DNA of 30,724 bases from Promethearchaeota archaeon (GCA_048938385.1 JBHLMG010000026.1:1-30724), one strand, 5' to 3'. Counted from the first letter of the stretch, positions 636 through 22,489 are shown. The notes: generated from the letters alone by a model not told the origin. Numbers and translations are program-made.

Positions 636-671
636 GAGCGTTGCCTGATTCTGTGAGTAAAAAGGCGTCGG
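636..671 (+). repeat. Intergenic cassette-boundary repeat, copy 1 (degenerate)
   Basis: GAGCGTTGCCTGATTCTGTGAGTAAAAAGGCGTCGG; ungapped 23/36 match to copy 3, including TGTGAGTAAAA and TCGG. Confidence 0.6.
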
Positions 672-715
672 TCGTATCACCATTTTTTAGAATTAATCAA
701 CTTCATTGAGGACAA

Positions 716-3223
716 CTATCTGGTGCTTTGAATAAAGGGCCTATCATTATTTGCCAGTAATTCCCATTTTTTCCTTTCTGAACGGAGTTTAAAAATATCA
801 ACATCTTTGAAAATAAGACCCTCTTCTCCTTTCGCTATTGTTCGGTCAATACGCTCTTTTTCTGGTGTATAAATTAGTGAATCTCCAAATTCTGCAATAT
901 TTGCAAAGAAACAATATGCGTAAATGGAACGCCTTGCATCGAAATGTGCGGCTTTAAAATCGGCTGTAACTGGGGTAAATGACGGATTAAAAATCAAATC
1001 TATTGGGGGTTCAGAATTTTTTAATTCCACTCTTAAATCCATATCCATGAAATCGCGACAGATAATTACTGCCATTCGCCCATAAATGGTATCGCAAACT
1101 ATTGTTTTTCTAGGTTTTTTTCCAACTTCAATTCCTTCGGTAAACCTCTTTCCATCCAATGTTATTGTCGCTGGGATGTGTTTCTCTTGAGTCCACAGAA
1201 TGCCTTCTGGGGCGATAACACGACTAATATTATGTTTTGTTTCACGATCATGATATGAACCAGGAATAATGTACATGTTGTATTTCTTAGAATATTCCTG
1301 TAAAGTATCTAATAGCAAAGGGTAGTTAAGATCAATTGCTAGCTCAGGGAATAAGAGAATGTTAATTTCTTTGGAAGCAGCCAACTCAATAATTTTTTTG
1401 ATTTTAGAATTGATTTCTTCGACTTTAGCTTCTTTAAGTCCGAACATATTGGAATGGATTTCTTCATAATAATCACTTAAGAAATGGTTTTCAATAGGCA
1501 AACCAATTTGTGCGATTCCAACTCGAAATTCATGTTTTTGTTTCTCGGGCTTTTCACCTACTACATCCACATGGATAAGTTGATACTTTTTTCCAGGGAT
1601 TATTAACATTTGACTGCTAAGGTCTTGAGCAACTATTTTTAGCATGTCCTGGATATAGTCTTCAATTTGGGCCATCCTGAGGCGTTCTTGAAGCGATGCA
1701 TTGCGCTGGAACAATTCTTGCCATTTCTCGAACTCAGCTTCAAAAGCTCGCTTCTCTTCAATAATTTGTTGGACCAGTAAGTCGAGATTCTTTTCTATGG
1801 CAGTGAGCATAGCTTGATCGTAGTATTTCCGGGCTTGCTGCAACTCTCCTTCAATGGTGGCAAATTTTGCACGTAATAATATGGCCTCTACAATCAGTGG
1901 ATACAGTTTTTGGTCTTGGACTATTGTAGAGAAGTGTTGGGTCAGAGTTTTGGCTTCCTCCCACACTTCAGGATCACCAAAGGATTTCACTTCAAAGAGA
2001 AGGAGGTCACAGTAATTAATTATGGCTAATGCTGTCCATTCAAACCAAATATTCTCTTCATTAACAATTTGTTTCAGTAGGCCCTGAGCTTGGACTTTGT
2101 CGCTCATCCGTTTACTTCGTTTTAAGATCAAGGCCTCGGCTAGCTGGCTCCTGAGAAGGATTTTCTTATTCGGAGTACGGGCATGAAGCTGTTGGAGTTG
2201 GTTTAGGTACGCTTGCGCTTGAGTTTGATCCTGTTGGTCTAATGTAGTAAGAATAAGGTAGAATAAAGTGTATGACGACCATATATTGTTCCCCATCACC
2301 TCCTCTAAGGCTAAGCTTTGTCGAAAACAGTCTAACGCTTTGTCCAGTTCGCCTTTAGTACGATAGATTATGCCAATATTATCTAAGGTCGTAGCAATGT
2401 CTTGGGGATTACCAATTTCCTCTTTTATGACCAAACTCCGCTGAAGATAGTCTAACGCTTTATCCAACTCGCCTTGAGCGCGATAGGCATCACCAATATT
2501 GTTCAAGGCTAGGGCAATGTAGAAGGGATTACCAATCTCTTCATATATGGCTAAACCACGTTGAAAGTATTCTAACGCTTTTTCCAGTTCGCCTTTAGTA
2601 CGATAGATTATGCCAATGTTATTTATGGACCCGGCAATATCTTGGAGATTGCCAATCTCTTCACGTATAGCTAAACTTTGTTTCCAATGTTTTAATGCCT
2701 TGTCCATATCCCCTGAAGCATAATAGAGGTTGCCCTGTACATTTTCGAACAAGGCTATCCATGCTATCCCAGTTTGCCGTTCCTTGGCCGTTAAAGTCGC
2801 TAGGATAGAGTTGCCTTCCTGAATGGGCTCTAAGGCATCATCCGGGCGTCCTAGTTTCCATAAGGCATAGAGTTGAGCTATTAGCAACGCCAGTGCCAGA
2901 GTGTGATCATTCAGAGACACAACATTCGCGCGGGCAGCTGTTGCTACTTGTAAGGCACCTTCAAGCTGTCCCAAAGATAATAATGAGCGACTTTTATAGT
3001 AAAGGCATTCAATTTGTTCGTCTTCTGGTAAGGAAGCAAATACTCCTTGGTTATCCTTCTGAGTTAGCTGGTCTAGGACTTCCTGATATTTACCGCTCTC
3101 GTAAAGGTCTTTAAGGGTCTTTGCCATCATTATCGGTGTCTGCTCTCTTTCTTCTATTGAGTACGAATTGCGTCCTATAATCTGAGATAAAATAAATAAT
3201 GTTCGTTCCTCTATCTGATACAA
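716..3223 (-). CDS. TPR-repeat protein with C-terminal carbon-nitrogen hydrolase (nitrilase superfamily) domain
   Basis: 40-aa TPR units (IAGSINNIGIIYRTKGELEKALEYFQRGLAIYEEIGN), a coiled coil, then a domain from ~1530 to 716 with FPEL, QEKHIP and ICRDF (Glu-Lys-Cys triad). True start probably ATG at 3130 or 3127. Confidence 0.85.
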   Translation of the reverse strand: MYQIEERTLFILSQIIGRNSYSIEEREQTPIMMAKTLKDLYESGKYQEVLDQLTQKDNQGVFASLPEDEQIECLYYKSRSLLSLGQLEGALQVATAARANVVSLNDHTLALALLIAQLYALWKLGRPDDALEPIQEGNSILATLTAKERQTGIAWIALFENVQGNLYYASGDMDKALKHWKQSLAIREEIGNLQDIAGSINNIGIIYRTKGELEKALEYFQRGLAIYEEIGNPFYIALALNNIGDAYRAQGELDKALDYLQRSLVIKEEIGNPQDIATTLDNIGIIYRTKGELDKALDCFRQSLALEEVMGNNIWSSYTLFYLILTTLDQQDQTQAQAYLNQLQQLHARTPNKKILLRSQLAEALILKRSKRMSDKVQAQGLLKQIVNEENIWFEWTALAIINYCDLLLFEVKSFGDPEVWEEAKTLTQHFSTIVQDQKLYPLIVEAILLRAKFATIEGELQQARKYYDQAMLTAIEKNLDLLVQQIIEEKRAFEAEFEKWQELFQRNASLQERLRMAQIEDYIQDMLKIVAQDLSSQMLIIPGKKYQLIHVDVVGEKPEKQKHEFRVGIAQIGLPIENHFLSDYYEEIHSNMFGLKEAKVEEINSKIKKIIELAASKEINILLFPELAIDLNYPLLLDTLQEYSKKYNMYIIPGSYHDRETKHNISRVIAPEGILWTQEKHIPATITLDGKRFTEGIEVGKKPRKTIVCDTIYGRMAVIICRDFMDMDLRVELKNSEPPIDLIFNPSFTPVTADFKAAHFDARRSIYAYCFFANIAEFGDSLIYTPEKERIDRTIAKGEEGLIFKDVDIFKLRSERKKWELLANNDRPFIQSTR
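2331..2720. repeat. Intragenic 120-bp tandem repeats encoding TPR units
   Basis: TCTAACGCTTT at 2331, 2451 and 2571, diverged unit at 2691; units at 2331 and 2571 share TCCAGTTCGCCTTTAGTACGATAGATTATGCCAAT exactly. Confidence 0.85.
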
Positions 3224-3291
3224 GTCTCATTCAGGGAATGTTGTCTTTTTGAATCTGCACAATGTTGTTTTAATGTGATATTTCTGATTTT

Positions 3292-3359
3292 AGAAAAAAG
3301 TTTCAATAAGGCTTGGGTTTGTGAGTAAGAGCGTATCGGATATTCATTAGTCGCAATCA
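3292..3359 (+). repeat. Intergenic cassette-boundary repeat, copy 2
   Basis: AGAAAAAAGTTTCAATAAGGCTTGGGTTTGTGAGTAAGAGCGTATCGGATATTCATTAGTCGCAATCA; 31/34 identical to copy 6 over 3301-3334, and shares the CATTAG..CAATCA tail with copy 5. Confidence 0.9.
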
Positions 3360-3453
3360 AAGAATTAGCACAAAATAAATTTGGTGTGATTGACTCAAAC
3401 CGCATTAAGCAAATTACAAGGGTTGAATAAGAGAGAAGAGCCTTGAAACCAAT

Positions 3454-5163
3454 CTATTCCCTAAAAGCAATGAAATCTTCGAGCATGGCCAATACCTGTC
3501 CTCGTTCAGGCTCTTCGAGCTCAGAATTAACGAGGTCTAGAACATCTTGAACTGTGATTTTTTCACGCGAGTATGAAAGTCGCAGATCGGTGAAATCCGC
3601 ATCTAGGACGAGAACCTTGTCTTTCCCTTCAGTGTTATCCCAAGTAGGCCAATTTGGTAAGTCAATACTATTAGGATCCCCCGCTCTCGCAAAATTAGCC
3701 AGATAGTTCATACACAAGTCTTTCAGTTTTTCACGACCAATCTGGTTATCCTTCGTGTGGGTCTTTCCTATCAAAAAGGCAAAATCTGATCCACTTGTTC
3801 CCAAGAAGAAGGGTAACTCAGCGCCATGGTAAGCACCTAGTTCGTGACCTTTATTTTTTGGTAGGACGCTCATGCCTTTATCATCAGGGCTTCCCCAGTC
3901 AAACCGGTATGCATAAACAGAGACATTGCTGTTAGCAGTCATTTCGCTAGCTGGTTTATTGACACCGTTTGCACGCCATAGCATGGACTGATAATTCCAA
4001 ACCCTGGAGCTCAGAGGAAGGTCCTCCATGAAAGAACTAAAGAGATTCATCTCATCCTTTGTGCAGCCTATAATCACCGGCACCATATTTGCCCATTCCC
4101 CAGAGGAAAAAACACCATACCCCTCTGCAGGTATCACTGTCCCATCAGCAATAATAGATCGCCATTGTGCCATTCCCAAAACCATAGTAGGAATGTTCTT
4201 CGTAATTGTGAAGGCTGATTTCGAATGTAGATATGCATTAATCTCATCATCTTGCATTTCGCTGATGTGCTTTTCAGCCTCTTCTTCATTCACAACTCTT
4301 CGATCACTGATGAGAAGGGCAACCAGAAGTCGTTCACTCTGGGCTATTGCTTCTTCAATACTACAAACCGACATCAGACCACTTTCAACAATAGCTCGAT
4401 GGAAAAGTCCCTTTGCAGAGGGCGATACCAATAGTGAAAGAACATTGAAAGCTCCTCCAGACTCACCCGCAATTGTGACATTATTTGGGTTACCCCCAAA
4501 AGCTCTGATGTTATCCCTAACCCACTCTAAGGACTTTACTAGGTCTAAGGTTCCATAATTCCCACTCTGGTCCTCTGGAGACCCAGAACCCGTCACAGCA
4601 GGGTGTGTGAACCAACCCATTGCACCAAGTCGGTAATTGACGGAGATGTAGAGCAAGTTCGATTTTTCAGCTACTGTATTACCGTAGTAGCTTGGCGTGT
4701 TTGATGACCCAATGGAATTACCTCCTCCATGAACATACAAGTAGACCGGTAGTTCAGTTTCCGAGCTCTTAGGACGCCATATGTTGAGGTAGAGACAGTC
4801 CTCTGAACCTGTTGGACCTATGATGGGCATAACCTGTGCTGCAGAGTTACCGAATTTCGTTGCCTTTCGCGTTCCGAGCCAAGGGATAGGATCAAGTGGT
4901 GCCTTCCATCTTAATTCTCCAACTGGAGGAGTGCCATAGGGAATTCCTTTCCAACACCAAGTGCCTTTGTCTGAAAACCCAAGAATCAAACCATACTTCG
5001 TCTGGACATTTGGCTCGTTGTTCCACTTACTCAGCTCATATGTACTATCAGAAGGTTTTGGTGCGAAATGACGCCTTATCGGTTGAGAAATGGCTCGTTC
5101 CAGATAGTTCTTTAATCTGAATAACGGGGAGATAAGTGAAGCTAACTTCATTATTTTAGGCAC
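3454..5163 (-). CDS. Carboxylesterase, type B family (alpha/beta hydrolase)
   Basis: Motifs GIPYG..P.GELRW, SEDCLYLNIW, HGGG, GESGG (nucleophile), KDEM and AYHGAE; GGTGAGG upstream of the GTG start. Confidence 0.92.
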   Translation of the reverse strand: MPKIMKLASLISPLFRLKNYLERAISQPIRRHFAPKPSDSTYELSKWNNEPNVQTKYGLILGFSDKGTWCWKGIPYGTPPVGELRWKAPLDPIPWLGTRKATKFGNSAAQVMPIIGPTGSEDCLYLNIWRPKSSETELPVYLYVHGGGNSIGSSNTPSYYGNTVAEKSNLLYISVNYRLGAMGWFTHPAVTGSGSPEDQSGNYGTLDLVKSLEWVRDNIRAFGGNPNNVTIAGESGGAFNVLSLLVSPSAKGLFHRAIVESGLMSVCSIEEAIAQSERLLVALLISDRRVVNEEEAEKHISEMQDDEINAYLHSKSAFTITKNIPTMVLGMAQWRSIIADGTVIPAEGYGVFSSGEWANMVPVIIGCTKDEMNLFSSFMEDLPLSSRVWNYQSMLWRANGVNKPASEMTANSNVSVYAYRFDWGSPDDKGMSVLPKNKGHELGAYHGAELPFFLGTSGSDFAFLIGKTHTKDNQIGREKLKDLCMNYLANFARAGDPNSIDLPNWPTWDNTEGKDKVLVLDADFTDLRLSYSREKITVQDVLDLVNSELEEPERGQVLAMLEDFIAFRE

Positions 5164-5337
5164 AATTCCTCACCATGAGAATGAGATCAATAGACTTGCT
5201 AGGTTAACCTCTGATATAGTTTCGTATATCTCTTCAATTTAATCTCGCTTCGAAGAAATACACATACGGCAATTGGAATAAAACCTTCAGGGGAGACTAG
5301 CCTACATTTATTGCTATTCTTATTTTCCTGCTTTCAA

Positions 5338-5390
5338 GGAAAAAAGTTGAGTAAGGCTTGGGTTTGTGAGTAAAAGCCTATCGGATGCCC
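5338..5390 (+). repeat. Intergenic cassette-boundary repeat, copy 3
   Basis: GGAAAAAAGTTGAGTAAGGCTTGGGTTTGTGAGTAAAAGCCTATCGGATGCCC; contains AGGCTT-N14-AAGCCT inverted arms and TGAGTAA twice with 19-nt period. Confidence 0.9.
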
Positions 5391-5423
5391 AGGACCTGTG
5401 CAAAATTTAAGTCAAATCACTAT

Positions 5424-8400
5424 CTAAAAAATGTAGGAGATCTCTTCATCCTCAAACCATTCTTCAACTTCAGAGAGCTTTGTTGTATTCAATTCTTGTA
5501 ACCTAGTTTGGATGGTCTTAAGGGATACTTTTGGGGTTTTTAATTTCGAATATAATAATGCGAGGTTTGTTAGTAGCTTCACGAGCAGAACCTGGAACTT
5601 CTCAGGTATTTTAGCTGTTAGTTCCTCAAAAATATTCATGGCTTCAAGATAGACTTGTTCCGCTTGAAGGAAGCGCCCTGTTATTTTGAATAATACCCCT
5701 AGATTACTTAGAGTTGACGCTAAATCGGGTAGATAAAGGCTTGGGGCTTGCTCTGATAGATCTCTGCGTAATTGAAGTGCTTCTGTGAGAGCGGTTTCTG
5801 CTTCAGTCAAGTTCTTTGATGCTGCCAAAACAACCCCGAGATTATTCAATGATGTGGCCAAATGCTGACGAAAATGTTTTGGTTCCTGTTCAGTTAATGT
5901 CCTTCTAATCGTTAATGCTTCTCGAAGGGTCTCCTCTGCTTCAGCCAGCCGATCTGTCTGTCCCAGTAAGACCGCAAGGTTAGTGAGGCTAATAGCGACT
6001 AGTGGCAAGCTATGTTCAGAAACTTGATCTGCCAAATGCCGGTTTATTTTTAGGGCTTTCGTGTGTACTCTTTCTGCCTTTTTGAAATGGCTATTCCGTC
6101 GATGCAAAACCCCAAGGTTATTGAGAACCATTGCAATCCAAGGGTCATAAATTGGTTCCCTCTTTTGTTCTTCACTTAGAATTTCTAGGGCTTCTTGAAA
6201 ACATTCCTCTGCTTTTGTTAAGTTCCCAATGTGGCTAAGGAAAATTGCTTGAATGTTAAGGATAAATCCAAGTTGTTTTGGTATCTCAGGATTTTCTTCT
6301 TCGATGGCTCGTGAATCTTCAATAATCTCACGAATCAACGACTCGGCTTCATGCAGCCTTCCTGTTCTTATTAGGATGTAGGAGAAATCCCGAACAATCA
6401 GTGGAACATAAAAACTCATCCAAAGGAAGTCCTTCTCTTCTTTATGCGTAATAGCGACCTGATACGCTTTGCGGATTAATTCTTCTGCCTCTATTGGTCT
6501 TTCAGAGAAAATGTAAAGTCTAGCAAGTGATACGGTTATTCTGCAATAGTACTCGTCAATTAATTTTCTGTGCATTGAGAACTGTTTATCGATATCCTTG
6601 TGATGTGCTTTCAGGTCGCTAAACTTTTGGCTGAGCTTCAGTGTTTCTTTGAATTCTTCTTCAGCTTTAGTGAAATGTCCAATGAAAAACAAGAAGAGGC
6701 CGAAGTGCCAACGCGTCCATATTAGGCGTTCAAGGTTAATATCAGGTACGCCGAACATAGGCCTTTCCCCTCGTAATGTCAGTTCCTGGAAGAGCTGAAT
6801 GGCTTCCTGGAATGTTTCTTCTGCCCTTGAAAATCTACCAGTGTATCGATAATTGATGGCAAGTCCAGTTAACGCCCATGCAACGAAGAGTGTGTATTTG
6901 TCCGGGTTAATACTTGCTTGCTTTCGAAAGTAAGGAAGCACTTCTTGGTGGTCTTGTTCTCCCTCAGTAAAACGGTTCAAGTTTTGTAGAATTCTCCCTC
7001 GATGCCACTTTACCATCATCTTACCTTCTTCGGAGTTAAATCGGATGAAAGCAAGCATTGAAAGAGCATCTTTGAATCGGTAGCTCCAATTTAGGTCATT
7101 TACGATATCCCCCGCTTTCTCAATCGCCTTCGGTTCATCCACGAGCGCTTGAACCGATAGTGCCATCCCTTGGAGTGTCGGATCTGCTTGTTCCTGAGCT
7201 GCTTGTTTAAGGCGGTGAGAGACATCTAGAACTAGCTTGTCAAGTTTATCTCCAAGCTCGGCAAGAACGAGATCTCTGGCTAAATCGTGCAGTTTCCAAG
7301 AACCATCACCTCGATTCTGAACAAAACTGAGATGAATTAGTCGGTCCCAATGATCAGTTTTCATTTGTGGGGCAATAACACTCATTATTGGACGGTTAAA
7401 GAAAGGAAGGATGCCCGCTCGATCGATGATTTCTAACAGGTCTTCTGCATGATCGAAAAGGCGGCGCCAAGTTTTGAGCCGTACTTCTTCCAATGTATCT
7501 GCCCGGAGGTTCTCAATGCTTTTTAAACTAAGTTGGTTGAATTCCTTAAGGTCACAAATGGTTTTCAAGACAAATGGATTGCCCCCGCTAACACTAATGA
7601 TTTGAGTCTGCAATTCCTGGTCTTCCACTTTGTGTTGAACGAGAAGGTCACGGCAGCTAGTAGCATCCAGTTCAGTGAGTTCAATATCCTCGACATTCAC
7701 TCGTGAACTAAGATGTTTTGGGGGGGCTTTGCGGCTAGCCATGACACTGATACTATTATTGATAGAGGCGAGAAATTCATACCAGAGCTCAGCTTCGCTG
7801 ATTCTTCGTCCATCGTATCCCCATTTCAGCTGTTCACTTTCTACTTCTTCATAATGGTCTAAGAGAAGTAAGAGTGATGGCTGGGTGTTTTTCCGACTGT
7901 TCAGGTCTTCAAGCAGCGCATCGAGAAATAGTATTTCCGCCTGTCGTGGGTTCTTCCATAGAATTTCAAGGAGTTTCTCAGTAGAATCTTTTCCTAGCCG
8001 GGTTTGTAGCCAATCCGCGACATCTCCAAACCGGCGCTTTATTCGTGGGCTTAGTTTACCGCCAATAGTGTGAATGGCTTTACCGATATTTACCAGAGAG
8101 CCAATGAAGGGTAGAGGTGATATTACATCAAAAACCCAATCACGCCCTGGTTCTTTTGCTGGTTCAATACCTTGAATGAAACGAAGTCTAATTGACCATA
8201 AAAGGTCAAAACGACGCAGCCTAATACCTAACCGAACTGCACTCTTGCTGATCGCATCCAAACGATCAAAAAAGTTAGTAATCAGTTCACAGTCGAGCAT
8301 GATGCTGGTTTCAATGGAATGGTGCCAATGGTCAAGGAGAGCTGTTTTTCCAATACCCCCGATTCCACGGATGTGGAGCACAACACTTTGAGCCTGACAG

Positions 8401-8483
8401 CGTGTAAGGGCATTAGTCATCCATTTTAAGGGTTCTTCCCTGTCGACAAACACCCTTTCAGAAGGTGCAAAGCGTTCGTACAT
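5424..8483 (-). CDS. STAND-class P-loop NTPase with C-terminal TPR array (NLR-like architecture)
   Basis: FVDRE, Walker A GIGGIGKT, Walker B LLLLDHYE, SGGNPF (GxP), LHDLAR (MHD-like), then TPRs (LATSLNNLGVVL...). Confidence 0.85.
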   Translation of the reverse strand: MYERFAPSERVFVDREEPLKWMTNALTRCQAQSVVLHIRGIGGIGKTALLDHWHHSIETSIMLDCELITNFFDRLDAISKSAVRLGIRLRRFDLLWSIRLRFIQGIEPAKEPGRDWVFDVISPLPFIGSLVNIGKAIHTIGGKLSPRIKRRFGDVADWLQTRLGKDSTEKLLEILWKNPRQAEILFLDALLEDLNSRKNTQPSLLLLLDHYEEVESEQLKWGYDGRRISEAELWYEFLASINNSISVMASRKAPPKHLSSRVNVEDIELTELDATSCRDLLVQHKVEDQELQTQIISVSGGNPFVLKTICDLKEFNQLSLKSIENLRADTLEEVRLKTWRRLFDHAEDLLEIIDRAGILPFFNRPIMSVIAPQMKTDHWDRLIHLSFVQNRGDGSWKLHDLARDLVLAELGDKLDKLVLDVSHRLKQAAQEQADPTLQGMALSVQALVDEPKAIEKAGDIVNDLNWSYRFKDALSMLAFIRFNSEEGKMMVKWHRGRILQNLNRFTEGEQDHQEVLPYFRKQASINPDKYTLFVAWALTGLAINYRYTGRFSRAEETFQEAIQLFQELTLRGERPMFGVPDINLERLIWTRWHFGLFLFFIGHFTKAEEEFKETLKLSQKFSDLKAHHKDIDKQFSMHRKLIDEYYCRITVSLARLYIFSERPIEAEELIRKAYQVAITHKEEKDFLWMSFYVPLIVRDFSYILIRTGRLHEAESLIREIIEDSRAIEEENPEIPKQLGFILNIQAIFLSHIGNLTKAEECFQEALEILSEEQKREPIYDPWIAMVLNNLGVLHRRNSHFKKAERVHTKALKINRHLADQVSEHSLPLVAISLTNLAVLLGQTDRLAEAEETLREALTIRRTLTEQEPKHFRQHLATSLNNLGVVLAASKNLTEAETALTEALQLRRDLSEQAPSLYLPDLASTLSNLGVLFKITGRFLQAEQVYLEAMNIFEELTAKIPEKFQVLLVKLLTNLALLYSKLKTPKVSLKTIQTRLQELNTTKLSEVEEWFEDEEISYIF

Positions 8484-8635
8484 GCCTGAAATCCCTATTA
8501 TTTTTTGGTGTCTATCAAATTTCTTACCTAAAAAGCCTTAATAAAAAAATCTACAAGTCTTTTTAGATCAGCCATTTAAAAGGCTCGTGTGATTTACACA
8601 ACCTTTTTTCAGATTCACTAGCGCTGTGGATAAAA

Positions 8636-8661
8636 TGAGCAAAGCCTAGATTAGTGTGTAA
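8636..8661 (+). repeat. Intergenic cassette-boundary repeat, copy 4 (degenerate)
   Basis: TGAGCAAAGCCTAGATTAGTGTGTAA; ungapped 19/26 match to copy 3, mismatches mostly transitions. Confidence 0.65.
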
Positions 8662-8854
8662 TGAAGTTTTGGAAGTCTCGGCTTCCTTCGAAACAGGGAG
8701 GACTAGCTTAGGGGTTCCATGAGGTCTAGGAATAGCGGTCATTAACTTCTTCTTAGTACATGATGTGTGGACTTTGATCTTCGGATGGTTTTGCTTTACA
8801 ATTCCTTTGTGGGAACCTTACGACGGGAGTGGCACATCACGGATGTATCAGTTG

Positions 8855-9337
8855 CTATAAGGGGATCTGGGCTAGCCGCAACTCGATGTAATAATGACTC
8901 ATTAGCCCTGGGAAAATAGTTGGTGAGAGATCAGGTGTGGCACTAATGTAATGGTTATGATATCTATTCCATATCGTGTCATTTTCAACGAATTCTAAGA
9001 CGACTGGATGACCATCGATGGCCATGACTATTTGCTCCTCACTAATCTGGAATCCACTGATGTGGTAATTCCATTTGAGCAACACTTCACCATTCAACAA
9101 GTCTGGTTCTGGGGTGACAACCAATAATCCGAAACCTGATTTCACAGTGAGGGAGACATTCCATTGACAAGTAGCTTCCCACCCCCCATGGGGTTCACCT
9201 GAGTCGTTGAAATTTAAGCTGCCCGTTAAAATGATCTCGGGCTGGTTAATCTGGATGAAAATATTAGCTGCAACAATACTTGTGGCAAAAATTACGACAA
9301 AAGCCAACACAACCAATAGTTTTGTTTTTACTTCCAT
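8855..9337 (-). CDS. Hypothetical exported/membrane-anchored protein
   Basis: 160 aa; basic N-terminus and hydrophobic helix, then a beta-rich-looking domain. Confidence 0.7.
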   Translation of the reverse strand: MEVKTKLLVVLAFVVIFATSIVAANIFIQINQPEIILTGSLNFNDSGEPHGGWEATCQWNVSLTVKSGFGLLVVTPEPDLLNGEVLLKWNYHISGFQISEEQIVMAIDGHPVVLEFVENDTIWNRYHNHYISATPDLSPTIFPGLMSHYYIELRLAQIPL

Positions 9338-9371
9338 TTCACTTACAACCAGTGCAACCTATGAATATTCG

Positions 9372-9412
9372 ATAATAGAATTCTGTTGCATAATATCCTA
9401 CGGATTAGAACA
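9372..9412 (-). promoter_or_regulatory. Shared upstream element, copy A
   Basis: + strand ATAATAGAAT...TATCCTACGGATTAGAACA, 35-75 nt upstream of CDS 8855..9337; matches 11157-11191. Confidence 0.5.
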
Positions 9413-9481
9413 CCTGGCCTTTGAATTTTTAAGGGCATAAAACAGGCTGTAGATGCTGAAATGTATGTAATTGTGGTCCGA

Positions 9482-9546
9482 AGAAAATTAAGTAAGGCTT
9501 AGTTTTGTGAGTGAAAGCATATCTGATGTCCATTAGCCATCAATCA
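9482..9546 (+). repeat. Intergenic cassette-boundary repeat, copy 5
   Basis: AGAAAATTAAGTAAGGCTTAGTTTTGTGAGTGAAAGCATATCTGATGTCCATTAGCCATCAATCA; abuts the stop codon at 9547. Confidence 0.88.
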
Positions 9547-11142
9547 TTATTTTTTTTCAAAGCGCTTCCTTTTCCTTATTGTAATCACGATTACGCTAAG
9601 AAGGCAGATTCCACAGAATGCTGATAGAGGAATGATTAGGTCCCAAGGCACTTCCAATATTATGGGTGCTGTAATTATAGAAATTTCGATGTATGTTAAG
9701 GGTCCAAGTCCCAGATCGTGTGATCTAGTTGTAGTTGGTGTGCGGTTCGACATGAAACTGGTAATGATATATGCTACATCGATCCGATTGCCCATGAAGA
9801 TGTCTGTAATTATGGAGCCCTCTTCATCATGTAGGTTTTGGTATATGTGCCATCCGAATGCATCATGTAAAGCAATGGAGACTCCGATAGTTTGATTTGA
9901 GGATTTTCGTATCTGGACTGTAAAATTTTCAAGAGGGGATTGCAGTTTATGGATGTGAAAGCCATAGTACCGCAGTGAAATTGTTTGATTAAGAAGGGGA
10001 AGCCCATTAACAGGATAGTATCGGGTAATCCGAGCATCTAGATTCTCAAAGCCATAGAGGTTGTTGCAGAATCCTAGCTCATCAATTGTTAGTGCCGTGA
10101 TCCAATTCAAGTAGAGTTCATTAAATGTAATATCATAGCCTGCCGTTTGCAAAACCGCCTCAATCCCGTGTGGTCCATCAGCTGGCTCCGTTATCAGGTT
10201 TCGCAGGATCTCAACACCATATTGTTCAGCGATATAGAAGGCAAACAAATACGAACTGCCATAATCAATGACCGCAGACACTCCCCCGTCATTGTACATA
10301 TTCCAATACAGGAGAGACTCCTCTGGATGTGGAAGAAAGGCACTTACTTGTGGTGCGAGGTTATGATGAGGTTCTAGATAGCCAGCATGGTACATTGCAT
10401 ATTGAGCTAATGCCTCTAGGATGAACTGAGGTTCATCCCATTCATTGTTAAACCAAATGAGATGATGAAATTCATGCGCAACTACATTTACTACTGGAAT
10501 CCTGTAATGGATATAGATCATCTCACACTGGTTTGAATACTCAAGGGGCAGCTCGTTTCTCTCAGAATAGTAATTAGCACAATTAGAAAGCAAGATTATG
10601 ATTCTCGGATCACCATCGATATCGCCTAATGTTCCATTGGGATGTCCTGCTAGGTCAGTGATTCGAGGATAGATTGTGCTATCAAATTCATCGCGTATGG
10701 TCTCTGTCTTCCCAATTGCAGCTAGTTCTCCAAGTTCTGTTATACAATTAGTTTCCATGAAAACAAGGCTGTATTCGCCTTTTGCGAGTAATGTTGCATT
10801 TACTTCATAGAAAAATGAAGCCGTGAAATCATAAATCCAAAAAGACCGTTGATAGCCAACCTCTTGAAAGTCCTTTCTATCAAATTGGTCTTGTTTAACT
10901 TTTGAAAGTTGAAAAGTATGATTTTGGAGTTCGCTATCAGGTTGTTTTAGAATATCACATTTTTCGTAGTGTTGTTTTTGTAAATTCGTTTCATTTTGTC
11001 TCTGGTGATATTGGAAATAAGATTCAAGCTCACTTAGGTTGATGGCACCAATTGGAATTAGGATCCCTCCAACTAAGACAAAAAGAAGACCTATAGAGCC
11101 TAGCAGCTGCATTCTATGCTGCTCTTTTGTAGAAGCCAACAT
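9547..11142 (-). CDS. Membrane-anchored zinc metallopeptidase (HExxH, gluzincin type, M30-like)
   Basis: AHEFHH with downstream LEALA, DIDGDPRI motif, DYGSSYLFAFY helix; N-terminal signal/TM and C-terminal TM followed by RKRKRFEKK. Confidence 0.75.
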   Translation of the reverse strand: MLASTKEQHRMQLLGSIGLLFVLVGGILIPIGAINLSELESYFQYHQRQNETNLQKQHYEKCDILKQPDSELQNHTFQLSKVKQDQFDRKDFQEVGYQRSFWIYDFTASFFYEVNATLLAKGEYSLVFMETNCITELGELAAIGKTETIRDEFDSTIYPRITDLAGHPNGTLGDIDGDPRIIILLSNCANYYSERNELPLEYSNQCEMIYIHYRIPVVNVVAHEFHHLIWFNNEWDEPQFILEALAQYAMYHAGYLEPHHNLAPQVSAFLPHPEESLLYWNMYNDGGVSAVIDYGSSYLFAFYIAEQYGVEILRNLITEPADGPHGIEAVLQTAGYDITFNELYLNWITALTIDELGFCNNLYGFENLDARITRYYPVNGLPLLNQTISLRYYGFHIHKLQSPLENFTVQIRKSSNQTIGVSIALHDAFGWHIYQNLHDEEGSIITDIFMGNRIDVAYIITSFMSNRTPTTTRSHDLGLGPLTYIEISIITAPIILEVPWDLIIPLSAFCGICLLSVIVITIRKRKRFEKK

Positions 11143-11156
11143 GATGTCTTATTATC

Positions 11157-11191
11157 ATAATAGAATCCCTATTATCCTACGGAATTGAACA
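11157..11191 (-). promoter_or_regulatory. Shared upstream element, copy B
   Basis: + strand ATAATAGAAT-CCCTAT-TATCCTACGGAATTGAACA just upstream of CDS 9547..11142. Confidence 0.5.
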
Positions 11192-11262
11192 GTTAATTCT
11201 AGTCATACACTTTGTAAAGAAATGTGTGATGATAAAGAGAAGTGCAATTTGTGACTGAAGAG

Positions 11263-11469
11263 TTATTCAGGTGGTTGCCAATCCTTCAACGATTGCGTTG
11301 CTGGTTTACCGTCAACTCCCCAATGCGTTTTGGGAATTTCATGAACAATTACTTCTACTGCACGAGAAGGAATACCGATTTTTATAAAAACATTCGTTAT
11401 TCCCTCAATTACCTCATTGATCTTTTCTTCCGAGAACCCTTTCCATACATGGACATGAACAACTGGCAT
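11263..11469 (-). CDS. 4-oxalocrotonate tautomerase family protein
   Basis: 68 aa; Pro after Met, beta-alpha-beta pattern, V.V.V.E....HWGVDG signature. Confidence 0.9.
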   Translation of the reverse strand: MPVVHVHVWKGFSEEKINEVIEGITNVFIKIGIPSRAVEVIVHEIPKTHWGVDGKPATQSLKDWQPPE

Positions 11470-11779
11470 AATTCAAATCCTCAATTATTCTGTATCCACT
11501 AACGCTTTTTTGCATTACCATGCAGAGGGTTAGTTACTATCCAGTTGGGTGTGGATAGCAGCCCCAACTAGACAAAGTAAGCTGGGAACCGTTTTAATGA
11601 AAATAATACCCAACACTTTATGACTAGGTTTTTCCGATAGTGATCTTCGATCTGAATTCTATGGGCTCTCTGCAACATCACTAACCCTCATATATTGTTG
11701 AGAACGAAAGCATAATATCAAAAAATTCAGGATTAACTAAGAAAAAACACAATATTAGATAAAGGGAGGCTTATGCAAA

Positions 11780-12364
11780 ATGAAAAGGCAACATGGGTTG
11801 ATTGTTTATGGCACCACCTTTGGGGCGACGAAAGGAACCGCTGAAGAGATTGCCAAAATACTACGCGAGGAAGATTTCGACATAAAGATTGTCAATGCGC
11901 AAGAGGAAAAAGTCAAAGACATTTCAGAGTTTGAGTTAGTCATCGTTGGGAGTAGCTTGGCAAATTGTAGATGGAATAGCAAGGCAGAGGATTTTCTAAA
12001 GAAATTCCATAAGGCATTGGAACCTAAAGAGTTAGCTCTATTTGTGTCGTCTGTGAACCCTATTGCTGTAAGAGAAGGGAACATAGAGGAAATTACTAAG
12101 ACACGTAAAATTGCCTTGGAGGACAAAGTATCAAAGTATGATCTCAAGCCCATCATGATGGCTGTTTTTGGTGGCGTCTTGAACTACAACAAGATGGGAT
12201 TTCTGGCGCGTAAAGGTATGGAAGTAGCCTTTATGGAGCGACTTCGAAACACTGGATTTAAAGAAGTTGAACCTGGCGTTTACGATTTACGTGATTGGGA
12301 TGAGATTCGAAGCTGGGCCAGAGAACTTGCTAAGGTGTGCGTGAGAAAACTAAGAAAGATCTGA
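11780..12364 (+). CDS. Flavodoxin-domain protein (HemG/Flavodoxin_5-like)
   Basis: IVYGTTFGATKGTAEEIA FMN-binding loop, VIVGSS, C-terminal DLRDWDEIRSWA; GGAGG RBS. Confidence 0.88.
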   Translation: MKRQHGLIVYGTTFGATKGTAEEIAKILREEDFDIKIVNAQEEKVKDISEFELVIVGSSLANCRWNSKAEDFLKKFHKALEPKELALFVSSVNPIAVREGNIEEITKTRKIALEDKVSKYDLKPIMMAVFGGVLNYNKMGFLARKGMEVAFMERLRNTGFKEVEPGVYDLRDWDEIRSWARELAKVCVRKLRKI

Positions 12365-12393
12365 GGAATTCCGAGTCTATGCGGAAAATCTAT

Positions 12394-12418
12394 CAAGACT
12401 TTATCTTATGGTAATCGC
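12394..12418 (+). repeat. Possible very degenerate repeat copy
   Basis: CAAGACTTTATCTTATGGTAATCGC; about 17/26 to copy 6 with one gap; lies in the expected intergenic position. Confidence 0.3.
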
Positions 12419-12433
12419 TGTTTAGTTAATGAA

Positions 12434-12922
12434 ATGCATTTAATATTCGTATTTTTCAGTGGAAAGGGCATGTGTGCCCTAACTTCGAAAGAGGTTGCTC
12501 TAAAGTTTCTTCAGAGTCATGCCTTCCTAACAATGGCTACCTGTTCAAAAACGGGAATACCAAATGCAACTCCCCATGAATATGGCTTTCATGAACCAAA
12601 TGTATTCTTAGAAATTTCAAAAGTACATGTATCAGTAGCAAATATACTAGAAAATCCTGTGGTTCATTTTGAAATCCATGATCTCTTCACCCCTGAGACT
12701 GCGCAAAACGCCAAGGTCTTACAGATCTTCGCTGAAGCTAAGATTCTCTACCCTAATTCACCTCAATTCGATAGCTATTGGGAAAAACTTACACAACAAT
12801 TCCCTTACATGAAGATGTTTCCCAAGGAAACTCGTGTTATCCTCGTTTTTCATCTCAAAGAAGGAACGCTAATAGAGTTCTCAAAAACCCAACTTCAAAG
12901 AACAATTATTGATTTCAAATAA
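12434..12922 (+). CDS. Pyridoxamine 5'-phosphate oxidase-like (FMN-binding split barrel) protein
   Basis: LTMATCSKTGIPNATP and NILENPVVHF motifs; start may be ATG at 12470. Confidence 0.78.
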   Translation: MHLIFVFFSGKGMCALTSKEVALKFLQSHAFLTMATCSKTGIPNATPHEYGFHEPNVFLEISKVHVSVANILENPVVHFEIHDLFTPETAQNAKVLQIFAEAKILYPNSPQFDSYWEKLTQQFPYMKMFPKETRVILVFHLKEGTLIEFSKTQLQRTIIDFK

Positions 12923-12942
12923 TCAATATAGTTGAAAAGCCA

Positions 12943-12984
12943 AGAAATAATTTCAATAAGACTTGGATTTGTGAGTAAAAGCGT
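12943..12984 (+). repeat. Intergenic cassette-boundary repeat, copy 6
   Basis: AGAAATAATTTCAATAAGACTTGGATTTGTGAGTAAAAGCGT; 31/34 identical to copy 2; lies between two + strand genes. Confidence 0.9.
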
Positions 12985-13083
12985 TATAGTATGGCAGAAC
13001 GGCATTATCAAAAATCGGATACCCGTTATGCAATTTATTATGATAGTAGAACATTATGTATTCAACTTACGGAGGTTTGATTA

Positions 13084-13923
13084 ATGGACCTAAAAAACGC
13101 TGTCAACAAAAATTTCGTCCTTCGAGTGCTTGTGTTTGCATTTCTCTTCGTTCTGACTGATCTAACTCTAACCATGGCCGGGCTGTTTCTTCTACAGCAG
13201 GTGGTTATTGATTTTGTCATTGGAATAGCTATAGGCTTCGTTTTTGGGCTAATTTTCATGAATATGCATTATCGTCGTTTTCTGCGCATAGTAATTGCTT
13301 GGTTTCTAATTTTTATTATTCAATGGTTTACCACCATGATTGAAGGCTACTTATTTACCACGATATTGACTGAACCGTTACTTATTGCAGCAGCAACATT
13401 TGGGCTTATTATCAGCTTTTTGCATGCGCTCTTCATTGGAATCCTATTTCCACCAATTACTTCAGATAAATCGCTAAGAAGTGAAATAAAGAGCTACTTC
13501 GCTGGACACCAGTGGCATCAATGGCTTTGGCGGTTTACGCTAGCCGCAGTTCTCTACTTAGTGATATATTATGGCATTGGCTCCTTGATTAGTCCCATCG
13601 TTCTCCCTTTTTACCTGGATATGGGAACAGGGCTGAAGATTCCCCCAGTGTGGATGATCCTTGTTGTAGAAATCTTACGCGGACTTCTCTACATACTAGC
13701 CTTGTTACCTATTCTTATCTCGCTCAATGTAGAAACCCGAGAACTTTACCTCTTAATTGCATTTGCACTCTATTTGCCCAGTATAGCGATGCTTTTACCA
13801 AATCCGGCATTTCCCATTTTACTTCGAATTATCCACGGACTCTTTGAAATCATGGTTGATTCCCTCTTATTCGCTGGAGTCATTATCCTCCTATTGAAAC
13901 CAAAATCGACAGAACCTAATTGA
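13084..13923 (+). CDS. Hypothetical multi-pass membrane protein
   Basis: 279 aa with about 8 hydrophobic segments; GGAGG RBS. Confidence 0.8.
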   Translation: MDLKNAVNKNFVLRVLVFAFLFVLTDLTLTMAGLFLLQQVVIDFVIGIAIGFVFGLIFMNMHYRRFLRIVIAWFLIFIIQWFTTMIEGYLFTTILTEPLLIAAATFGLIISFLHALFIGILFPPITSDKSLRSEIKSYFAGHQWHQWLWRFTLAAVLYLVIYYGIGSLISPIVLPFYLDMGTGLKIPPVWMILVVEILRGLLYILALLPILISLNVETRELYLLIAFALYLPSIAMLLPNPAFPILLRIIHGLFEIMVDSLLFAGVIILLLKPKSTEPN

Positions 13924-13928
13924 AGTAT

Positions 13929-13955
13929 AGTAGAGCTTGGTTTTGTATGTATAAG
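13929..13955 (+). repeat. Intergenic cassette-boundary repeat, copy 7
   Basis: AGTAGAGCTTGGTTTTGTATGTATAAG; ungapped 21/27 to copy 3; lies between convergent stop codons. Confidence 0.7.
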
Positions 13956-13978
13956 AGACTTAGTTCTTCAAAGGAAGC

Positions 13979-14881
13979 TTAATCATTGCCTCTCTTAGCC
14001 AAGAATCTAATGTAAATCCGTATGTCACGAAACCTGAGGCGGAGTGCAGGTACTCGTTTTTGATATTCAATGAACGACTCACCAAACCTCTCTCGGAGCT
14101 CCTTCTCTTCAACAAAAGTAATGTGAATTAGAAGACCGAATAAGAACATTAGAAAGAACATCAGCGAGTACACGGAGAAGCGAAGCCACAGGCCACCCAT
14201 GGCTAGGGTTAACACGCCGAAATATGTTGGATGACGGAGCACTGAGTATATCTCGTGCTGTTGGATCTGTGACTCAGCAGGGAAGTAAAGATAAACCAGA
14301 GCCATGTAGTCGACACCGAAGGTGAGAAACGCGCTTCGGATCGTCAATAATCCAAGGATGATGAAGAAGAAACTCGCGATGATTCGAGCTGTAAAATCAA
14401 CATTAACAGGTAAATCAAGAAAGGATAGGAAAGACCTGGATAGCAGGGTCGTAATGGGGTTTACTGGCGTTCCAGCTAGGAGCGTGTCAATAGGGGTGTA
14501 AATGTGAATGCATATTGCTAGGACCCAAGAGACTCCGAAAAAACCTCGGGGGATTGCCCTCTGATATGCAAGTTCTCCAAGCGCTGCCACATAACGGTCC
14601 CTGCTGTGCCAAACGCCCCACACCAACTTGAAAGCGATTACCTCGCTCAATAACACTCCAAGAACTGGTAGTATTGGTTCAACCAGGACTAAAACAGCTA
14701 TGTGCGGAAAGATTCTGGCTACAGAATCAACGAGCAACATGAGGGCTAAAGCGGTGACGAACGCCAAAAGGATCAATAACCCTAATCCTACCGCTCTCCA
14801 ACCTCGGTACTTAGGGATCTTCTTCTTCAGTGTGTCCAGACCTTTCAAATGCATCAAAGTGACCAACCAAATGAAATGCAA
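13979..14881 (-). CDS. Isoprenylcysteine carboxyl methyltransferase (ICMT/Ste14/PEMT) family membrane protein
   Basis: YSVLRHPTYFG and EEKELRERFGESFIEYQKRVP motifs; likely start ATG at 14854. Confidence 0.85.
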   Translation of the reverse strand: MHFIWLVTLMHLKGLDTLKKKIPKYRGWRAVGLGLLILLAFVTALALMLLVDSVARIFPHIAVLVLVEPILPVLGVLLSEVIAFKLVWGVWHSRDRYVAALGELAYQRAIPRGFFGVSWVLAICIHIYTPIDTLLAGTPVNPITTLLSRSFLSFLDLPVNVDFTARIIASFFFIILGLLTIRSAFLTFGVDYMALVYLYFPAESQIQQHEIYSVLRHPTYFGVLTLAMGGLWLRFSVYSLMFFLMFLFGLLIHITFVEEKELRERFGESFIEYQKRVPALRLRFRDIRIYIRFLAKRGND

Positions 14882-14986
14882 TTACCACTCTTAAAATTTG
14901 AGACAAAGTGACCTTTGAGCCCTAGTTACCTACAAAAGGAACGATGGGTCACAACTGCGAAGGGAGGAACCCCTCAACCATACTAT

Positions 14987-15006
14987 CAAGGCGTATTTAC
15001 TGAGTA
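14987..15006 (+). repeat. Possible degenerate terminal repeat copy
   Basis: CAAGGCGTATTTACTGAGTA keeps AAGGC and TGAGTA with spacing one nt short; preceded by CTATCAAG like the 12394 candidate. Confidence 0.35.
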
Positions 15007-15923: not shown

Positions 15924-17318
15924 ATGCAGTCAGAAGAAATAACTCCACAACGGGGTCCGAAGGGACCAATCTTCTTACTTGCCATCGGAATCATCCTTCT
16001 GTACGGATTTGGCTTCTACAACCTCTTTTTTCTAGTGTCCCCCTATCTACCTATCATTATTAGTATCATCAACATCGCCTTACCTTGGCTAGCAGGATTC
16101 CTCTGGGCAGAGGTTCTCTTCATAATTGTCATAATTGCTCTCGCTTTGATTCTAGCTTACGGTATTTTGCACCTGATGAAACGGGCCGCTGCAGGAACCC
16201 TTCGAGTGCTCTGGATTCTCCAAGCCATCATCATGCTCGCTATTGGTCCTATCTTGATCTTCTTTTTTGGATTCTTTGGTCTATTTGGACTCTTCTTCTC
16301 CTTCATCGGAATAATTCAACTGGCAGTGTGGTTTTACCGCCGGAAGAAAATCGAACGCGCCGGAAAACTGGCGGAATTCACCGCACAGCTGTTGTTAGAA
16401 GAAAAGGAAATGTTCATCACTCCTTTAGTTACAGCAGTTTTCAGCTTACTAACGGGTATTCTCATGATGGCAACATGGGGGGCGATGTACACTTGGTTAC
16501 CCCTTATTGGTATACCCACTGATTCATGGATATTTTTCATCCTCACTATACTCGTTGAGATACCCTACTTGTTTGTCTATTTCTCAGTGTTTTACATCTT
16601 TGAAGGCATCAATGTCTCAATCGCTCATACCTGGTACCGGAATGAGGATCCAGTGCTGCGTGGAGGGATTCGTGAGGTTAACTCAGTGATGGGAACCATA
16701 ATTCGCTTCGCAGCAGTTCGTACAGCTGTTGGAGTTGCACAAAGCGCGGTTCAACGAGGATCCGCCAAACAAGGTGGGATTTTCGCACTAATAGGTTCCA
16801 TCCTTGCTAGACTGATTGGCGCAGTATTTCGGTTCCTCACCTACTTTACGCTTCCTGCCATCATAATCGATAAAATGCATTTACGCGATTCAATCAAACG
16901 ATCAGTACGCCTAACTTGGCGATACCTCGTGGATGTATATATTGCTGAAACGGGGGTAAAAACTGTCTTTAGCTTCTTTGGAGGACTCTTCTCGCTAGGC
17001 TTTCTCGCTGTGGGCTTCCTGTTTGGGTATGTGTTCGGCATTATCCTCTTTGCCGATCTATTCTTCGCCATCATAGCTGGCATCGTCTTTGCCATCCTCT
17101 TCATTGTGTTCGCAGCCATTCCCAGCTACTTCATCTTTCGTCCACTTAACACGGCCTATAACACTTTCATGTATGCCTATGCAATGGATGAAGAGAGTCA
17201 ATTCAGTCTACCCAGCCGGTTGCCAAAGGCCTATGCGGATACCATCGAAGCAGCTCAAGCTGAATGGGAAGCTTCAGGAAAGAAGCGACATATGCAAGAA
17301 CCACCTAGCGAATGGTAG
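15924..17318 (+). CDS. Multi-pass membrane protein, choline transporter-like (CTL/SLC44/PNS1; DUF6159-like) family
   Basis: About 10 TM segments; SIAHTWY, MGTI and TYFTLPAIIIDKMHLRDSIKRS recall the CTL C-terminal core; AAGGAG RBS. Confidence 0.6.
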   Translation: MQSEEITPQRGPKGPIFLLAIGIILLYGFGFYNLFFLVSPYLPIIISIINIALPWLAGFLWAEVLFIIVIIALALILAYGILHLMKRAAAGTLRVLWILQAIIMLAIGPILIFFFGFFGLFGLFFSFIGIIQLAVWFYRRKKIERAGKLAEFTAQLLLEEKEMFITPLVTAVFSLLTGILMMATWGAMYTWLPLIGIPTDSWIFFILTILVEIPYLFVYFSVFYIFEGINVSIAHTWYRNEDPVLRGGIREVNSVMGTIIRFAAVRTAVGVAQSAVQRGSAKQGGIFALIGSILARLIGAVFRFLTYFTLPAIIIDKMHLRDSIKRSVRLTWRYLVDVYIAETGVKTVFSFFGGLFSLGFLAVGFLFGYVFGIILFADLFFAIIAGIVFAILFIVFAAIPSYFIFRPLNTAYNTFMYAYAMDEESQFSLPSRLPKAYADTIEAAQAEWEASGKKRHMQEPPSEW

Positions 17319-17438
17319 AGCAAGAGATTTTCCCTGGAACACTTGATGCTCTTCTCAATGTAGGTTATATGCCAACATAGGCAACAAAGAAAAAGGACAT
17401 TCCACATCAGAATTGGGTGCATATTCGAGCGTGATATC

Positions 17439-17759
17439 ATGTCAGAAGCAAAAAACGGCGACACTGTGCGTGTCCACTATGTAGGTAAATTCCCTGGCGG
17501 AAAGGTCTTTGATACCTCGCTGGAAAAGGAGGCCGTACGCGCGGGGATATTCAATAAGGGTCGTGATTACAAACCCTTAGAAGTCACCTTGGGAGCAGGT
17601 CAGGTCATTAAAGGCTTCAATGATGCCATCATCGGCATGAAACCAGGGGATGAGAAGACCGTCACGCTTCCGCCCGAACAGGCTTATGGGAAGAAAGGAA
17701 AACATCCCATGGCAGGGAAGACTCTAGAGTTTCGGATCATCCTCGTGGATATCAAATGA
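17439..17759 (+). CDS. FKBP-type peptidyl-prolyl cis-trans isomerase (SlyD-like, no insert-in-flap domain)
   Basis: GDTVRVHYVG, FDTS, GQVIKGF, PPEQAYG and HPMAGKTLEF motifs. Confidence 0.92.
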   Translation: MSEAKNGDTVRVHYVGKFPGGKVFDTSLEKEAVRAGIFNKGRDYKPLEVTLGAGQVIKGFNDAIIGMKPGDEKTVTLPPEQAYGKKGKHPMAGKTLEFRIILVDIK

Positions 17760-17814
17760 CCTAGTATGCCTTTCCAGAGTAAACGACGGGTAAAGTTAAA
17801 TACGGCTATCAGCG

Positions 17815-19170: not shown

Positions 19171-19245
19171 GACTTCTCGATTTGTTCGTTATTCATGGCA
19201 TAGGCTTTTTGAGTTGGAAACCCCCTTGTCAATCGGGGTCGGGTT

Positions 19246-20058: not shown

Positions 20059-20069
20059 AGAAGGGCTGG

Positions 20070-22482: not shown

Positions 22483-22489
22483 CTATCCG

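Follow-up and report, generated by a model that had tools for sequence, protein, structure and literature searches.

A probable integron-like cassette array at a single chromosomal locus of a Hermodarchaeota genus

The locus, its repeat and its modules

The stretch of DNA that is described here, to which we refer as the window, is the entire 30,724-nt contig C32 of a metagenome-assembled genome (MAG) of Hermodarchaeota (Asgard archaea); the MAG, here G000, comprises 2.48 Mb in 51 contigs and is 89.8% complete. In the first 15 kb of the window, where the G+C content is lower (38-46%), accessory genes are separated by the copies of a repeat that always has the same orientation, while the DNA further to the right includes a conserved chromosomal flank. 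Relatives for comparison were found through a conserved gene of this flank, and belong to Candidatus Hermodarchaeum and to other Hermodarchaeota. The reading of these 15 kb as a cassette array is well supported, both by the comparative structure of the locus and by a contrast at synonymous sites; a more specific reading, namely that in one Hermodarchaeota genus the chromosome carries an integron-like array, of which they form the right-hand part, with site-specific exchange at the core of the repeat, has in our judgement an even chance of being correct.

The repeat has been located in three ways. A 26-nt core, searched with at most three mismatches, has four matches in the window, all on the + strand, and none in 100 shuffles; repeat finding returns a 53-nt family at the same four places; and a profile that was built from 28 copies, all of them from other genomes, detects five copies with significant E-values, all on the + strand. 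These five are copy 1 (628-676, E = 8e-5), which is diverged and carries the "GGCGTCGGTCGTA" type of tail; copy 2 (3294-3346, E = 1e-13); copy 3 (5339-5391, E = 3e-17), which is the nearest to the consensus; copy 5 (9480-9532, E = 3e-11); and copy 6 (12944-12996, E = 2e-9), with copies 2, 3, 5 and 6 being the members of the 53-nt family. Two more copies, also on the + strand, are decayed and are recognised by their positional homology to relatives: copy 4 (8636-8690) is missed by the profile, but aligns to an intact copy in locus L018 with a conserved right flank, and copy 7 (13929-13975) is marginal in the profile search (13935-13970, E about 1), but aligns with an intact copy in locus L009, with which it has the left flank in common. 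At one more junction (11203-11215), 84 nt are absent from the window in a pairwise alignment with locus L015; since this 84-nt stretch is the whole motif in L015, a copy of the repeat has been lost at about 11211.

An earlier, sequence-only reading of the window had placed copies at the seven positions that are given above, and had described all of them as intergenic and on the + strand, with no copy past 15 kb. The repeat that it claimed is real, as the five copies found with the profile of the relatives attest, and its placement of the copies relative to the genes is correct: every copy is intergenic and on the + strand, and the profile finds none beyond 15 kb. Its copies at about 8636 and 13929 stand as decayed copies, although the profile alone would not have recovered them. 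The three weak candidates that it listed in addition fared less well: the candidate at 11245 is no copy but a part of the next module, with the lost-motif junction located 35 nt to its left; the candidate at 12394 has found no support and is no copy either; and the candidate at 14987 falls at a module boundary, but the motif is not detectable there.

Open reading frames (ORFs) were called on all fetched loci and were then clustered into families (F numbers), and the stretches between motifs were found to hold one to three genes. The sequence-only reading had assigned a single unrelated gene, with its own upstream region, to most intervals; the upstream DNA is indeed a property of the modules, with the distance from the motif to the next start codon varying between 50 and 390 nt, but the number of genes is not restricted to one. 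In the window, copy 1 is followed by the gene of an 835-aa TPR protein with a C-terminal CN_hydrolase domain according to Pfam (716-3223, - strand), which was not found in the fetched loci of relatives; three 120-nt tandem TPR units are located in it, at 2289-2726. The F2 module is located between copies 2 and 3, and consists of a carboxylesterase gene (3454-5163, - strand, 569 aa, Pfam COesterase 6.6e-88) with its own upstream region (5164-5338); this module is 88-90% identical at the nucleotide level in five relatives, where it has other neighbours. The stretch between copies 3 and 5 (5424-9337, - strand, Pfam), which holds the decayed copy 4, contains the gene of a STAND NTPase-TPR protein (5424-8483) and an F17 gene (8855-9337), and occurs only in G000 among the loci that were compared. 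It is followed by the F8 gene (9547-11142, - strand, 531 aa), which has a weak Peptidase_MA-like match and the stop codon of which is 15 nt away from copy 5, and by two genes on the + strand (11780-12922, Pfam): a flavodoxin-like gene (11780-12364), with no homologue in the loci of relatives, and the PNPOx-like gene F9 (12434-12922), which is a single-gene module between two motifs in loci L013 and L011. The F29 gene (13084-13923, + strand, 279 aa) has no Pfam match, and the last recognisable module is the F18 gene of a PEMT/ICMT-like methyltransferase (13979-14881, - strand, Pfam), which is also seen in the arrays of L015 and L018.

Across all loci, the cargo of the modules includes a carboxylesterase, an α/β-hydrolase, a Zn-dependent alcohol dehydrogenase, SnoaL-like proteins, an ACR3-type transporter with ArsR, a GNAT acetyltransferase, PNPOx, flavodoxin, an MBL-fold hydrolase, an ABC exporter, a disulfide oxidoreductase, a methyltransferase and the STAND-TPR protein; it is thus a cargo of small detoxification and metabolic enzymes, similar to that of integrons, and no recombinase or integrase was found among the module genes. 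Genes of this kind also occur away from the repeat: the pair of the ACR3-type transporter and ArsR and the GNAT gene (F35), which are located inside motif arrays in G006, G012, G013 and G008, are present in G000 without the motif (C16:19373-20877 and C26:18444-18989), with 85-90% amino acid identity. An AT-rich element of about 45 nt (ATAATAGAAT...CCTACGGAWTWGAAC) is found just upstream of the starts of F17, F8 and F29 (9370-9415, 11150-11200 and, inverted, 13027-13059 of the window); it may be a common promoter of the leaderless type that is carried by cassettes.

To the right of the modules, the conserved chromosomal flank (15924-23899) contains DUF6159-like, FKBP, HEAT-repeat, AP_endonuc_2, MFS and NfeD genes, and is syntenic in locus L016 and in other Hermodarchaeota. 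The remainder of the window (24197-30724, - strand) is occupied by a giant ORF, which exceeds 2173 aa and runs off the end of the contig; it holds five tandem repeats of about 340 nt, 61-72% identical, at 29029-30611.

Distribution of the repeat across genomes

In G000, the matches to the profile are limited to the window and to the 5.9-kb contig C41, which carries three copies on one strand and starts inside a copy. Among the genomes of the same genus, the motif is present in 10 of 14, in co-oriented clusters, and all copies of a fetched contig, up to nine of them, lie on one strand; it is absent from four sister-genus genomes and from 22 searched genomes of other families. A scan of Joint Genome Institute (JGI) metagenomes added three contigs, which repeat known arrangements. 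The scan of the genome with a profile had been proposed by the sequence-only reading, which had named a genome-wide spread in both orientations as the result that would speak against it; such a spread does not hold, since the copies are confined to one locus, on C32 and C41 only and on a single strand in each. On the same grounds, a dispersed repeat of the repetitive extragenic palindromic (REP) or miniature inverted-repeat transposable element (MITE) type was rejected. A CRISPR-like array, the repeat of which the core loosely resembles, was also considered and rejected, given the absence of Cas1, the spacing in the kb range and the lack of other genomic copies. Words of the core such as TTTGTGAGTA do occur elsewhere in the genome, in unrelated and seemingly coding contexts.

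The assembly is broken at or inside the array in all the contigs that were examined (L009-L020, L033-L036, and C26, C41 and C32 of G000), with the contig ends falling within the motif or within an htrA-like gene, F6. The left flank of the array in G000 is the end of contig C26, and since this contig breaks inside F6, the order of the three contigs is C26, a gap that contains C41, and then the window.

Structure of the repeat

The comparison of about 48 copies has revealed that some 37 nt are conserved, with sharp boundaries, i.e. an A-rich run that is followed by GTTCAGTAAGGCTTGGGTTTGTGAGTAAAA; to its right, the copies continue into a tail of several types, which differ by one base in length, and the type of the tail goes with the right-hand module. 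Pairs of copies have a mean identity of 0.87 in the central 20 nt versus 0.28-0.29 in the DNA that lies 20-30 nt away, the former value being inflated, since the copies were selected by a match of at most four mismatches to that same stretch. A constant 17-nt stretch that lies beside the core is conserved as well as the core itself in these copies, which come from more than 10 species. When the end of a module is read on the minus strand, a module-specific tail is followed by the 11-nt core (TTACTCACAAA), the constant 17-nt stretch and a T-run; the site also holds two direct half-sites that are 19 nt apart. The reading of the repeat as an RNA gene or as a hairpin was rejected, given that no fold beats those of shuffled sequences.

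The same minus-strand order can be taken for a short C-terminus that ends in a stop codon and is followed by a T-run, which would fit an explanation of another kind, in which the copies are duplicates of an attachment site, left behind when small integrative elements inserted in tandem at the tail of a gene or of an RNA gene, as happens at tRNA genes. The copies are direct repeats, as this explanation demands, and an analogy is offered by copies of an actin gene tail that are found in the same genome (see below). However, no copy ends an open frame of more than 84 codons in the three candidate frames, the Rfam and tRNA scans of the window have given no match, and the one-base differences in tail length would break any frame; the modules also lack an integrase, although a master copy could lie at the ends of the array, which are unassembled. 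We consider an origin from tandem integration to be very improbable.

Rearrangement of the modules and transfer between species

The order of the modules differs between species, with the same modules recurring. In loci L013 and L015, for example, the F2 esterase gene and F8 are adjacent, with one motif between them, whereas in the window 4 kb of DNA, carrying the STAND-TPR gene and F17, are inserted exactly between two motifs. When the window is compared with its relatives by blastn, 18 of the 40 ends of the homology blocks lie within 60 nt of a motif (2.1 are expected from random placement, with a maximum of 9 in 2000 trials); the other ends are found mostly at the lost-motif junction (about 11205-11260), at 11610, at 12415 and at about 14900-15000. 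The gain, loss and shuffling of modules with breakpoints in the repeat, for which the sequence-only reading had recommended a comparison with relatives, is therefore what the comparison displays. Within the repeat, the left flank and the A-run track the left module and the tail tracks the right module, so that the switch of homology is placed inside the core.

The exchange of modules extends across species and is recent. For the same pairs of genomes, the protein identity is 75-93% for the cassette genes versus 52-77% for the flanking core genes, and the identity at fourfold-degenerate sites is 0.60-0.85 for four cassette genes versus 0.30-0.40, i.e. saturated, for two flanking core genes; the contrast at the fourfold-degenerate sites implies that the cassettes were exchanged long after the separation of the species. 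Transfer between families is suggested in the case of the esterase, as it is present with 82-84% protein identity in a different Asgard family (G135:C182, G129:C11:596861-598567 and G107:C39), but was not found in the four sister-genus genomes; no repeat array is seen around the esterase homologues of other Asgard families. The Logan contigs of four runs provide weak hints only, which have not been used as evidence: one minor contig joins position 9423 to 11256, skipping F8, with ends that follow no clear sequence logic, and a joint leads back from 5375 to 3421, with 32 nt on one side that would fit any copy of the motif.

The anchor at the htrA-like gene

With the motif on the + strand, the array is bounded on its right by the conserved block, from 15.9 kb of the window onwards, and on its left by the HtrA-like protease gene F6, a CAAX protease gene (F7) and Ras-like GTPase genes. 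The genes F6 and F7, which neighbour the arrays of relatives, were examined as recombinase candidates and were rejected, being an HtrA-like protease and a CAAX protease.

Just before the start codon of F6 lies a palindrome, TTACTCACA-N3-TGTGAGTAA, with arms of 8-10 nt around a 3-nt centre, the left half of which is the core of the motif; this palindrome is found at two or more conserved loci per genome. At the anchor, the sequence to the right of the core is constant, while the sequence to its left is one of four unrelated sequences in seven species: a cassette tail of type A (G008), a cassette tail of type B (G013), a 100-nt block (four species) and another sequence (G003). The 100-nt block of the htrA promoter also occurs inside the arrays, where it is joined to the left part of the motif in hybrid sites (C41:2792 and L017:8621), and in G006 it is duplicated together with a small ORF. 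The array of G014 ends in a copy of which only the left half is present, and the half sites have the same breakpoint. For the event at the htrA promoter of G008, no reciprocal junction was found in the assembled part of G008. The junctions that are seen, at the anchor and in the arrays, are those that would result if the entry and exit of modules took place by exchange within the 11-nt core, the fixed partner being the htrA site.

In most genomes of the genus, this palindrome is also present, with one or two changes, ahead of the start of an Hsp20-like gene, where it follows a TATA-like box. Since it recurs in this manner at a second conserved locus, the palindrome is most likely the operator of a stress regulon rather than a unique dif site, and it is thus a candidate for an operator of heat-shock or stress genes in Hermodarchaeota. 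The form TTA[CG]TCACA-N3-TGTGAGTAA, with extra boxes nearby, was noted between the TATA-like box and the start codon of both HtrA-like and Hsp20-like genes, at L030:880-1100 (about 105.8 kb of G008:C32), in L031, and upstream of F6 in L010, L012, L014 and L018. In G008 and G013, the TTTTAC stretch of the motif sits at the position that the TATA box of htrA has in other species.

These likenesses invite an explanation in which the repeat is mainly regulatory or transcriptional, its minus strand providing a TATA-like box, an operator half-site and a T-run, i.e. a stress promoter, a terminator or both, and in which the shuffling of modules is a by-product. The core is identical to a half-site of the palindrome, which across the genus separates the TATA box of the htrA-like and Hsp20-like genes from their ATG; this speaks for it, as do the TTTTAC stretch of G008 and G013 and the location of the motif after the stop codon of 27 out of 37 right-hand neighbours, often within 6-25 nt and with the T-run at its end. 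The orientation of the neighbouring genes speaks against it: they are antisense to the motif 2-2.7 times as often as sense, but about a third of them (12/36 and 10/37) face the other way, and divergent as well as convergent gene pairs form single modules, which makes a plain promoter or terminator role unlikely. Moreover, the next start codon follows at about 50 to 390 nt, with no fixed distance or orientation, the motif is found in no other promoter or terminator of the genome, only its 11-nt core matches the operator half-site, and the recent transfer between species would be left unexplained. A mainly regulatory repeat is, in our opinion, unlikely; even so, the exchange may involve a DNA-binding factor of the stress regulon, or the conservation may be partly regulatory.

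Recombinase candidates and the mode of exchange

The sequence-only reading had described an integron-like platform, the recombinase of which would lie outside the window. The capture and shuffling of modules at the repeat agree with this description, but the DNA to the left of the window and the rest of the genome have yielded only XerA: the single PF00589 protein of G000 (G000:C26:15819-16301) passes the model of archaeal XerA (270 bits, cut-off 220), fails the model of integron integrases (154 bits, cut-off 265), and has XerA 4a8e and 5hxy as its nearest solved structures. XerA is located 17-21 kb from F6 in four genomes, which looks like ordinary synteny within the genus. No gene for IntI, a serine recombinase, IS110, HUH Y1 or Cas1 was found in G000, while two TnpB-like genes occur elsewhere in this genome.

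A second repeat, unrelated to the one that is anchored at htrA, is present on contig C12 of G000: copies of an actin C-terminus (HRCF followed by a stop codon, minus strand) are located at 18860, 35499, 44430, 44887 and 45967, and each of them is followed by a GGGAGG...CCTCCC hairpin and a T-run. The presence of two different repeats with no visible dedicated enzyme makes recombination through short homology a serious rival: the array would be the same, but its repeats would act as patches of identity, at which modules are looped out as circles by ordinary archaeal recombination, be it homologous or through short homology; circles, or DNA of relatives, would re-insert at any copy, and intact repeats would persist since only the modules that bear a repeat spread. 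Besides the copies on C12, XerA as the only recombinase found, a site without inverted arms, which a tyrosine recombinase requires for binding, and the fact that all junctions fall where the partners share sequence are in favour of this rival. It is less easily reconciled with the anchor, where only 11-14 nt are shared and yet seven species display at least four turnovers of the junction, with the half sites that are joined to unrelated DNA breaking at the same position, and with the conservation of the 17-nt stretch at the level of the core, which identity alone would not need. Exchange with no dedicated enzyme thus remains a doubtful, but in no way negligible, explanation.

Several observations weigh against site-specific exchange in an integron-like array. 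The array was not seen whole, as every contig breaks inside it. No dedicated recombinase was found in G000, at the completeness given above, or beside the arrays of relatives. The internal site is without dyad symmetry, the consensus having no dyad with arms of at least 7 nt, and it forms no hairpin, the DNA folds of six copies, on both strands, having z values of -1.5 to +1.3 and no common structure; it is therefore unlike any known tyrosine-recombinase core or attC. The core is a half-site of a transcription factor, so that part of its conservation may be regulatory. Furthermore, all junctions could also have been produced through short homology, which is 11-14 nt long at the anchor and 37-65 nt long between copies, and the actin-tail repeat of C12 is at least as compatible with a generic process that is based on homology as with one site-specific enzyme.

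If the exchange is nevertheless site-specific, as we infer, recombination inside the core would excise, insert and swap modules of one to three accessory genes, usually with their own promoter. The gene of the enzyme would lie outside the array, with XerA being the sole candidate that has been seen and an unrecognised enzyme being as likely; the fixed end of the array would be the promoter of the htrA-like gene, where the core, as the left half of the operator, would play the role of attI. As a tentative extension, this could be a gene-capture system of the Asgard archaea's own, integron-like in its organisation, with an asymmetric, double-stranded site that derives from the promoter or tail of an anchor gene, and served by XerA acting on a non-dif site or by an unrecognised family of recombinases; as part of that same, rather speculative proposal, the htrA promoter and the actin tail of C12 would be parallel platforms of one mechanism, by which accessory genes pass between Asgard species and families.

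Comparison with known systems

Integrons are the textbook platform for the stockpiling and exchange of single genes, and the Asgard archaea are the closest prokaryotic relatives of eukaryotes. Here, an Asgard genus presents an integron-like organisation and recent gene flow between its species, but its site is of another kind and it has no integron integrase. This would be a new system of site-specific recombination if it has a dedicated enzyme; if there is none, short repeats and ordinary recombination would suffice for an integron-like gene market, and the reading of cassette arrays that lack an integrase would change. The array breaks every MAG assembly that was examined, and thus this portion of the accessory genome is systematically under-sampled.

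The array is similar to sedentary chromosomal integrons and to clusters of attC sites lacking integron integrases (CALINs) in being a chromosomal array of small cassettes, with sites that have the same direction and are homogeneous within a lineage. As in integrons, the order of the cassettes varies between relatives with the boundaries at the sites, the cassettes are exchanged horizontally, their cargo consists of small enzymes, and one end is fixed beside a conserved gene, in the manner of attI. The attC site is an imperfect inverted repeat of 55-140 nt (RYYYAAC ... GTTRRRY), which forms a single-strand hairpin. The Hermodarchaeota site, in contrast, is not an imperfect palindrome and is without R and L boxes (the GTTRRRY box is matched by copy 3 only, and the consensus reads GTTCAGT) or a single-strand hairpin; there is no IntI, and the anchor is the operator of a stress gene instead of an attI next to an integrase. 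Moreover, while the cassettes of integrons are mostly promoterless, co-oriented and driven by Pc, the modules described here have their own promoters, with a third of the genes in the opposite orientation and a bias of only 2-2.7 to 1. For archaea, the literature that was searched describes classical attC integrons only (Ghaly et al. 2022, PMC9668308), and contains nothing on a system that is anchored at htrA.

A second comparison is with modules that depend on Xer recombination, namely the arrays of integrative mobile elements exploiting Xer (IMEX) at dif and the pdif modules of Acinetobacter plasmids. Here too, gene modules are located between short sites, a host Xer protein is the sole recombinase, and the direct repeats of IMEX and pdif arise from serial integration. 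A dif-type site has 28 bp, in which a 6-bp spacer separates two inverted arms of 11 bp each (Cortez et al. 2010, PMC2958812), and it is with this 11-6-11 architecture only that our site was compared. The repeat has no such symmetry, and its internal half-sites are direct, not inverted; as it also lacks a dyad, and neither strand folds better than shuffled sequences, it is not of the attC or the dif type, in agreement with what the sequence-only reading had stated. The anchor palindrome likewise differs from dif, with its 3-nt centre and its recurrence before the Hsp20-like gene, and is probably an operator. Lastly, unlike the actin tail of C12, where the end of a gene is repeated, the repeated piece of the array matches part of the promoter and operator of its anchor gene, and not a 3' end.

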